From Escherichia coli (lineage in GTDB: Bacteria; Pseudomonadota; Gammaproteobacteria; Enterobacterales; Enterobacteriaceae), in NCBI RefSeq assembly GCF_003334315.1, contig NZ_QOWR01000060.1: 28,819 nt of DNA; one strand, 5' to 3'. The notes below the pieces were generated by a model. It was not told the DNA's origin. It ran no database searches and was given only the letters and a program-made list of their open reading frames with translations. Positions within the stretch are counted from its first letter, which is position 1. Every line of letters starts with the position of its first letter. The position numbers were made by a program, and so were the translations under genes. Positions 17,315-19,096 of the stretch are shown piece after piece.

Positions 17315-17348
17315 AGGCCGGATGATAAGGCGCAGCCGCATCCGGCAA
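17315..17348. repeat. REP (repetitive extragenic palindrome) unit between hpaF and hpaH
   Basis: AGGCCGGATGATAAGGCGCAGCCGCATCCGGCAATG matches the E. coli REP core (GCCGGATG...CATCCGGC). Confidence 0.8.
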
Positions 17349-17365
17349 TGCCACAGGATATCGCT

Positions 17366-18169
17366 ATGTTCGATAAACACACCCACACCCTGATCGCCCA
17401 GCGTCTGGATCAGGCAGAAAAACAGCGCGAACAGATCCGCGCGATCTCCCTGGATTACCCGGAGATCACCATCGAAGACGCTTACGCGGTGCAGCGTGAA
17501 TGGGTCCGACTGAAAATCGCCGAAGGCCGTACGCTGAAAGGCCACAAAATCGGTCTGACCTCGAAAGCGATGCAGGCCAGCTCACAAATCAGCGAACCAG
17601 ATTACGGTGCATTGCTGGACGACATGTTCTTCCACGATGGCAGCGATATCCCGACCGATCGCTTTATCGTGCCGCGCATTGAAGTGGAGCTAGCTTTCGT
17701 GCTGGCAAAACCGCTGCGTGGGCCAAACTGCACGCTGTTCGACGTCTACAACGCCACGGACTACGTGATCCCGGCGCTGGAGCTGATCGACGCTCGCTGC
17801 CACAACATCGATCCGGAAACCCAGCGCCCGCGCAAAGTGTTCGACACCATTTCTGATAACGCCGCCAACGCCGGAGTGATCCTCGGCGGTCGTCCGATCA
17901 AACCAGACGAACTGGATCTGCGTTGGATCTCCGCCCTGATGTATCGCAATGGCGTGATTGAAGAAACCGGCGTCGCCGCTGGCGTGCTAAATCATCCGGC
18001 AAACGGCGTGGCCTGGCTGGCGAACAAACTCGCACCGTATGACGTACAACTGGAAGCCGGGCAAATCATTCTCGGCGGTTCGTTCACCCGCCCGGTTCCG
18101 GCGCGTAAGGGCGACACCTTCCACGTCGATTACGGCAACATGGGCTCCATTAGCTGCCGCTTTGTTTAA
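17366..18169 (+). CDS. hpaH: HpaH, 2-oxo-hept-3(4)-ene-1,7-dioate hydratase
   Basis: ORF 17348..18169; start at the internal ATG ([19 protein letters not shown]...), 267 aa. Confidence 0.9.
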
Positions 18170-18179
18170 GGAGAGAACG

Positions 18180-18968
18180 ATGGAAAACAGTTTTAAAGCG
18201 GCGCTGAAAGCAGGCCGTCCGCAGATTGGATTATGGCTGGGGCTGAGCAGCAGCTACAGCGCGGAGTTACTGGCCGGAGCAGGATTCGACTGGTTGTTGA
18301 TCGACGGTGAGCACGCGCCGAATAACGTGCAAACCGTGCTCACCCAGCTACAGGCGATTGCGCCCTACCCCAGCCAGCCGGTAGTACGTCCGTCGTGGAA
18401 CGATCCGGTGCAAATCAAACAACTGCTGGACGTCGGCACACAAACCTTACTGGTGCCGATGGTTCAAAACGCTGACGAAGCCCGTGAAGCGGTACGCGCC
18501 ACCCGTTATCCCCCCGCCGGTATTCGCGGTGTGGGCAGTGCGCTGGCCCGCGCCTCGCGCTGGAATCGTATTCCTGATTACCTGCAAAAAGCCAACGATC
18601 AAATGTGCGTGCTGGTGCAGATCGAAACGCGTGAGGCAATGAAGAACTTACCGCAGCTTCTGGACGTGGAAGGGGTCGACGGCGTGTTTATCGGCCCGGC
18701 GGATCTGAGCGCCGATATGGGTTATGCCGGTAATCCACAGCACCCGGAAGTACAGGCCGCGATTGAGCAGGCGATCGTGCAGATCCACGAAGCGGGCAAA
18801 GCGCCGGGGATCCTGATCGCCAATGAGCAACTGGCAAAACGCTATCTGGAACTGGGCGCGCTGTTTGTCGCCGTCGGCGTTGACACCACCCTGCTCGCCC
18901 GCGCCGCTGAAGCGCTGGCAGCACGGTTTGGCGCACAGGCCACGACCGTTAAGCCCGGCGTGTATTAA
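18180..18968 (+). CDS. hpaI: HpaI, 4-hydroxy-2-oxoheptane-1,7-dioate (2,4-dihydroxyhept-2-ene-1,7-dioate) aldolase, class II
   Basis: ORF 18039..18968; start at the internal ATG with SD ([21 protein letters not shown]...), 262 aa. Confidence 0.9.
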
Positions 18969-18969
18969 T

Positions 18970-19096
18970 GCCGGATGCGCTGCACTTATCCGGCCTACAC
19001 TCGCACCAAACCGTAGGCCGGATAAGGCGTTTACGCCGCATCCGGCAAAAAGCCGTACCAAATCGCGGACCGGATAAGGCGTTTGTGCGCATCCGC
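18970..19096. repeat. BIME / REP cluster (about 3 REP units in alternating orientation) between hpaI and hpaX
   Basis: GCCGGATGCGCTGCACTTATCCGGCCTACA, GTAGGCCGGATAAGGCGTTTACGCCGCATCCGGCA and CGGACCGGATAAGGCGTTTGTGCGCATCCGCC are read directly. Confidence 0.85.

Follow-up and report, generated by a model that had tools for sequence, protein, structure and literature searches.

The window analysed here is a 28,819-nucleotide stretch of Escherichia coli DNA (NCBI RefSeq assembly GCF_003334315.1, contig NZ_QOWR01000060.1) that carries the hpa gene cluster, and this study concerns repetitive extragenic palindromes (REPs) found in two of its intergenic gaps, hpaF-hpaH and hpaI-hpaX. A first-pass annotation of this DNA had proposed that the 67-bp hpaF-hpaH gap holds a single enterobacterial REP and the hpaI-hpaX gap a three-unit bacterial interspersed mosaic element (BIME), and unit-by-unit alignment to the REP consensus bears out both proposals. 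The reading that we consider probable is that these are ordinary E. coli REP/BIME copies occupying two permissive intergenic slots of the hpa cluster, where they would affect the hpa mRNA in ways known, by analogy, from REPs at other loci.

Every unit was aligned to the published 34-nt REP consensus (GCCGGATGCGGCGTGAACGCCTTATCCGGCCTAC, quoted from PMC12306157). The hpaF-hpaH REP (17313..17347, plus strand) agrees with it at 29 of 34 positions, has CCAG in place of GTAG and contains a 3-nt insertion in its 5' arm. The first unit of the hpaI-hpaX gap, REP1 (18969..18998, 28/34), is a 30-nt short-loop unit that starts at the first base past the hpaI stop codon; its GTAG is on the minus strand and the unit is hence inverted in the mRNA. 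REP2 (19013..19047, plus strand, 33/34) is a canonical 35-nt Y-type unit with GTAG present, and forms an inverted pair with REP1 over a 14-nt linker. REP3 (19064..19098, plus strand, 26/34) is degenerate, has GCGG in place of GTAG and is oriented as REP2; a 52-bp unit consisting of a REP plus linker is repeated in tandem here, and REP3 is its second copy (Tandem Repeats Finder period 52, 1.9 copies). The hpaI-hpaX array is an atypical BIME i.e. a canonical inverted doublet with a tandem degenerate unit in direct, not alternating, orientation. Judging by its length, the linker between REP1 and REP2 appears too short for an IHF-containing long linker.

The GTAG tetranucleotide is conserved 5' of the REP palindrome, and no mutation in it is tolerated by the E. 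coli REP transposase (PMC8266576). REP1 and REP2 have kept this motif. As it has been lost from the hpaF-hpaH REP and from REP3, these two units are probably decaying copies.

A search of the whole window with the REP pattern, allowing at most 3 mismatches, gave three sites (17313-17346, 19013-19046 and 26353-26386), against an expected number of 0.00 in 100 dinucleotide-preserving shuffles of the window. All four units at the hpa junctions are extragenic, lying between annotated coding sequences. When the BIME segment was compared by megablast with the 5,426 complete E. coli genomes, none was without a match, and the median number of places per genome was at least 23-28; because it matches in all genomes and at many places, it belongs to a dispersed repeat family. 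By their sequence, their palindromic fold, their place outside genes and their copy number across the genome, the hpa junction units are shown to be members of the genome-wide REP family. At gathering thresholds Rfam gave no match anywhere in the window. Below them, at E<=1, the sole match was that of naRNA4 (RF02564), a model derived from REP325, which aligned to REP2 at 19016-19053 with 42.2 bits (E=1.3e-5; gathering threshold 59.5), and REP2 resembles a REP unit, not a naRNA4 gene. The annotation of K-12 MG1655, which we examined for REP features, lists none, even at malE-malF, and a RAYT gene is absent from the window.

The published map places the end of the meta operon, hpaGEDFHI, at hpaI, and hpaX and hpaA are described separately (PMC7180172, PMC7201708). 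Since this map stops at hpaI, the hpaI-hpaX BIME lies at the 3' end of the operon, which is the classical position for a REP, and on that map the sole operon-internal REP is the hpaF-hpaH unit. The description of the REPs as lying inside the hpa operon therefore holds for the hpaF-hpaH unit and not for the BIME, which is at the operon end.

The two gaps differ in the RNA structures that they are predicted to form. All four units are imperfect palindromes in the 20-50-nt size class of E. coli REPs and are predicted to form stem-loops, with folding energies of -16.9 kcal/mol for the hpaF-hpaH REP, -12.1 for REP1, -20.9 for REP2 and -11.5 for REP3. Folding of the entire hpaI-hpaX gap RNA gave -70 kcal/mol (z = -5.06 against shuffles), with REP1 and REP2 predicted to fold together as one long hairpin of -48.5 kcal/mol, the first paired base of which (18969) is 0-1 nt after the UAA. 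The predicted hairpin of the hpaF-hpaH REP (17317-17346) consists of a stem of 8 bp with a second, small stem inside, and begins 18 nt from the hpaF stop codon when measured to the stem, or 14 nt when measured to the REP boundary. A REP thus lies no more than 15 nt past the stop codon at hpaI, whereas at hpaF the unit is on the borderline of this distance or outside it. The REPs are followed by AAAAAGCC and by AUAAACC; there is no U-run, so they do not qualify as intrinsic terminators.

By analogy with other REPs, the REP1/REP2 pair would form a very stable hairpin in the mRNA from the first base past the hpaI stop codon. This hairpin would be expected to block 3'-to-5' exonucleases, stabilising the upstream, HpaR-controlled hpaGEDFHI message and marking its 3' end. 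It would also partly terminate read-through into hpaX-hpaA, probably via Rho because no U-tract follows it. In addition, with no more than 15 nt between stop codon and hairpin, ribosome termination at hpaI may be hindered and the yield of HpaI lowered as a result. The lone hpaF-hpaH REP would act as at most a small barrier or attenuation within the operon; a small effect is expected here because the hairpin is weak (-17 kcal/mol, like shuffled sequence) and its stem is 18 nt past the stop codon.

The precedents for these steps come from other loci. Differential mRNA stability or partial termination, which the first-pass annotation proposed as possible effects, is what is usually expected of REPs (bioRxiv 10.64898/2026.03.23.713779). 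REP325 partly terminates transcription in a Rho-dependent manner and also stabilises the message upstream of it, and its removal raises expression of the downstream gene by ~8-10-fold and lowers the upstream transcript; in tandem gene pairs separated by REPs, the median log upstream/downstream expression ratio is 0.96, compared with -0.09 for controls, with a wide spread (bioRxiv 10.64898/2026.03.23.713779). When a REP is located <16 nt from a stop codon, the gene upstream of it is translated less (Liang et al. 2015, in the summary given in PMC12306157).

Complete genomes show how far the REP content of the two gaps varies within the species. Of the 5,426 complete E. coli genomes, 2,071 have the hpa cluster, and alleles were counted in this hpa-positive set with stringent single-HSP (high-scoring segment pair) E-value cut-offs. 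The hpaF-hpaH gap has two common forms: the window type of 67 bp with one REP (1,082 genomes) and the E. coli W type of 110 bp with two REPs (976 genomes). At hpaI-hpaX the 174-bp allele with three REPs predominates (1,668 genomes), and an allele of ~117-123 bp with two REPs, found in a BL21 derivative among others, accounts for 244 genomes. Allele proportions in a sample of 60 genomes taken at even steps match these counts. E. coli W, in which the pathway was characterised, combines the 110-bp hpaF-hpaH gap with the 174-bp hpaI-hpaX gap. In almost every hpa-positive E. coli genome the slots are occupied.

Rare hpaI-hpaX alleles extend this range in both directions. EC476 has four units in 227 bp, RM9131 has 69 bp containing a REP1/REP3 hybrid hairpin, and GN06156 has 21 bp with no REP, and its hpaI 3' end and hpaX allele are foreign. 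In GN06156 (locus L091, 2332-2932) the hpaI open reading frame is 804 nt, compared with 789 nt in the window (+15 nt), and the hpaX protein (WP_000213782.1) is unlike the common one; on its sequence, this strain is another apparent mosaic replacement beside the BIME site. Read directly from sequence, the hpaI-hpaX alleles are 21, 69, 117, 122-123, 174 and 227 bp long. Comparison of these sequences shows an array that grows and shrinks mostly by steps of one 52-53-bp unit, or else by REP-to-REP deletion, with the REP3-type unit as the one that varies. The two-REP alleles are REP2/REP3 chimeras in which the crossover differs between strains (EC0880B and AH01 versus Rb-50), which indicates repeated unequal recombination or slippage.

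To compare the junctions in other genera, species-representative genomes were scanned for HpaI, giving 80 loci in which the homologues were placed by tblastn and the gaps read. In 49 Enterobacterales other than E. coli the hpaF-hpaH gap ranges from 8 to 409 bp. GTAG-type REPs of the lineage's own flavour occupy 23 of these 49 junctions, and 14 contain an unrelated palindrome family (CCCTCTCCC...GGGAGAGGG). A further nine are essentially empty (<=20 bp), in Buttiauxella, Yokenella, Serratia species, a Pluralibacter metagenome-assembled genome (MAG) and three other Enterobacteriaceae. The comparison with other genera, which the first-pass annotation had suggested as a check, finds at this junction REPs of their own in about half of the species and unrelated repeats or nothing in most of the others. 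REP-like sequence is present at 17 of the 31 scorable hpaI-hpaX junctions. Because inserts recur across genera, both junctions behave as sites where palindromic repeats land or are retained time and again; the content of a junction is lineage-specific and not conserved.

Some of the repeats at these junctions belong to other types. The hpaF-hpaH gaps of Enterobacter, Klebsiella and Kluyvera (five loci) contain 1-4 copies of a GC-rich palindrome, GTCCCCTCTCCCTTTGGGAGAGGGTTAGGGTGAGGGG..., in gaps of up to 409 bp; in appearance this palindrome resembles box C-type repeats. In Serratia quinivorans the hpaI-hpaX gap is filled by an element similar to a 130-bp insert (24010-24139) that the window carries upstream of btsT (..GTGAATCCCCGGGAGCTTACAAAAGTAAGTG..). 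This insert is absent from K-12, and it resembles an ERIC/IRU element.

What does persist across genera is a leader of ~35 nt immediately before hpaX. In the window it occupies 19108..19142 on the plus strand (GTCGTACCCTACAAAAATCCCATTAGAGGAAGAAAA) and contains the ribosome-binding site. The leader (ACCCTACAAAAATYCCCATYAGAGGAA) is kept in E. coli, Klebsiella, Salmonella, Citrobacter, Kluyvera and Buttiauxella, and the sequence upstream of it varies. In Klebsiella, Salmonella, Citrobacter, Kluyvera and their relatives the inserts lie between the hpaI stop codon and this leader (ACCCTACAAAAATTCCCATYAGAGGAA), and in E. coli and the leader-keeping genera every REP insertion is upstream of it. The leader could be a translation-initiation or operator element.

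Several observations weigh against a regulatory contribution from the hpa REPs, and most of them are what would be anticipated if the units were neutral passenger DNA i.e. selfish or decaying repeats in two tolerant spaces, with no selectable effect on hpa expression. Among E. coli strains the number of units ranges from 0 to 4 at hpaI-hpaX and from 1 to 2 at hpaF-hpaH, where the two alleles occur at near-equal frequency (1,082 versus 976 genomes); the 0-4 range argues against a tightly constrained role. The junction is empty in Buttiauxella, Yokenella, Serratia and the Pluralibacter MAG, and unrelated palindromes take the place of REPs in Enterobacter, Klebsiella and Kluyvera. Of the four hpa junction units, two lack GTAG, and the hpaF-hpaH hairpin is no stabler than shuffled sequence (73 nt, z = 0.16). 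REP effects are also strongly context-dependent, and mRNA half-life is not uniformly changed by them (bioRxiv 10.64898/2026.03.23.713779). Every functional step proposed at hpa is predicted by analogy. The range in copy number and the empty or unrelated junctions fit a neutral passenger at least as well as a selected regulator. On the other side, about 40 of 49 species have a palindromic insert at hpaF-hpaH, a high occupancy, although an insertion bias could equally produce it. Tandem pairs separated by REPs show upstream-biased expression genome-wide, and a hairpin of -48 kcal/mol directly at a stop codon would probably not go unnoticed by ribosomes and RNases. We therefore treat passenger DNA as a possible explanation that deserves to be taken seriously, while doubting that it is the right one.

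We consider it very improbable that the hpaI-hpaX palindromes are instead a dedicated hpaX promoter/operator or an intrinsic terminator of the meta operon, REP-like by resemblance only. The gap does separate the meta operon from hpaX-hpaA (PMC7180172, PMC7201708), and the leader beside hpaX is conserved across genera. However, a scan of both gaps found no sigma-70-like promoter site and no hairpin-plus-U-tract, intrinsic-terminator-like site, and a promoter or terminator reading of either gap was rejected on this result. Furthermore, the palindromes fit the REP consensus known from the whole genome, in which they are found hundreds of times, their number varies between strains, and the conserved leader lies downstream of the units and is kept in REP-less gaps of 43-47 bp. 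We give practically no credence to the remaining explanation, an artefact of assembly or of this strain, which the first-pass annotation had raised in case no other E. coli hpa cluster had the REPs: essentially every other cluster has them, and the same gap sequences recur in 1,082 and 1,668 independent complete genomes, including, for hpaI-hpaX, the reference E. coli W. Ordinary REP/BIME copies with effects by analogy remain our preferred reading.

The hpaF-hpaH REP also coincides with boundaries of sequence divergence and rearrangement. The window hpaF and the allele of E. coli W and C (PDB 1OTG) are 81.6% identical in nucleotide and 84% in amino acid sequence, and elsewhere the same pair is far closer (hpaD 3' end 100%, hpaH 96.5% and hpaI 98.6% identical). 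The divergent patch (16911-17323) extends from directly after the hpaD stop codon to a point inside the hpaF-hpaH REP, and the split in hpaF runs at ~1,082 versus 976 genomes. The two E. coli hpaF alleles are as distant from one another as they are from those of other genera: the W-type hpaF is 93% identical to that of Pseudocitrobacter, and the window-type is 96% identical to that of a genome labelled 'E. coli' by NCBI that GTDB ranks as a separate species. These comparisons suggest that hpaF was replaced as a whole gene, one junction falling in the REP. We rejected an hpaF paralogue as the source of one 82%-identical match, which proved to come from a truncated hpa cluster that carries the W-type hpaF allele. 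In strain 47-1826 (locus L088, 6380-6500) the hpa cluster breaks off precisely where the first hpaF-hpaH REP ends (...GGGCCT|TGCATACC; ...CTTACCGGGCCT|TGCATACC), and the truncated cluster is joined to the iraD/uxuR region, with the breakpoint at the REP end and a CT dinucleotide there. A more far-reaching interpretation is that strain-variable REP content acts as a heritable dial that sets the hpaGEDF:hpaHI ratio and hpaXA read-through across lineages, with the hpaF-hpaH REP also serving as a breakpoint for hpaF replacement and cluster truncation; we consider this unlikely.

The first-pass annotation had also described the hpa cluster as horizontally acquired, a description for which we found no support. 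Its GC content is 54.4%, compared with 50-52% in the flanks, it lies between tsr and btsT in every genome inspected, and it is syntenic in ~50 Enterobacterales species with protein identities of 80-96%. PMC7201708 argues that K-12 lost the cluster. The 'empty' site of K-12 has 133 bp of unrelated AT-rich sequence in place of the 11.3-kb cluster (window 12528-23848) and is silent on gain versus loss; neither a REP scar nor direct repeats were found at its junctions. In Pseudocitrobacter species the Hpa proteins are 85-100% identical to those of E. coli (96-100% for HpaD, HpaH and HpaI), far above the other non-Escherichia genera compared. E. coli-type Y REPs are present at both of their hpa junctions. 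The Pseudocitrobacter data suggest a recent exchange of the hpa cluster between genera.

The gene calls used throughout were checked against the RefSeq annotation of E. coli strain 13C1065T, which matches segments 16900-19300 and 17200-19250 of the window at 100% identity, and they agree with it. The gene order in that annotation is tsr, hpaR (minus strand), hpaG-hpaE-hpaD-hpaF-hpaH-hpaI-hpaX-hpaA-hpaB-hpaC, btsT, yjiX and yjiA. On the plus strand of the window, hpaF, in its window-type allele, spans 16918..17298, hpaH (2-oxo-hept-4-ene-1,7-dioate hydratase) 17366..18169, hpaI (aldolase, the final gene of the meta operon, with its TAA stop at 18966-18968) 18180..18968 and hpaX (4-hydroxyphenylacetate permease) 19143..20519, so that the two gaps are exactly 67 and 174 bp long. 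A further, two-REP BIME (26311..26387, units 26311-26340 and 26353-26387) lies in the btsT-yjiX gap; it is absent from K-12 MG1655 and E. coli W, in which the gap is 49 bp, and is a further strain-variable REP site.

That REP/BIME elements occur past stop codons and at the ends of operons is textbook knowledge for E. coli, and the hpa units resemble those between malE and malF and REP325, between yjdM and yjdN, in many respects. They share the consensus (with its GTAG in REP1 and REP2), the imperfect palindrome of ~35 nt, with an AA/GC bulge in REP2, the extragenic position just past stop codons, an inverted pair over a short (14-nt) linker, a dispersed distribution and the lack of a U-tract. 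They depart from those BIMEs in that the third hpa unit is a direct-oriented 52-bp tandem copy and two units lack GTAG. In relation to the stop-proximal REPs of nrdAB (Liang, Rudd and Deutscher 2015), in the form summarised in PMC12306157, the hpaI BIME is alike in having its hairpin 0-1 nt past the UAA, as is the W-type hpaF-hpaH gap with its first REP 10 nt past the hpaF stop codon; the window hpaF-hpaH unit differs in that its stem begins 18 nt beyond the stop codon and its boundary lies at 14 nt, which is borderline or outside the rule as summarised there. REP1 and REP2, being inverted and predicted to form a single hairpin, also resemble a REPIN, the inverted doublet mobilised by RAYT/TnpA_REP. 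No evidence that this doublet is mobile was found, nor was any sought, and the variation seen at hpa consists of tandem copies gained or lost locally and of deletions from one REP to another, not of new insertions.

The hpa REPs are therefore already known in kind: they belong to a family described long ago, at a locus whose sequence dates from 1996. In that year Prieto et al. first described the E. coli W cluster, and their paper is said to have noted REP sequences; our literature search for hpa together with REP returned nothing relevant. Little is at stake mechanistically, as 3'-end protection, partial Rho-dependent termination and stop-codon stalling have already been described at other loci. 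The variation does bear on the engineering of hpaBC and hpa from strains W, B and C, as their intergenic regions differ (at hpaI-hpaX, two REPs in BL21 and three in W), and the natural alleles of 21 to 227 bp provide a ready-made REP dosage series.

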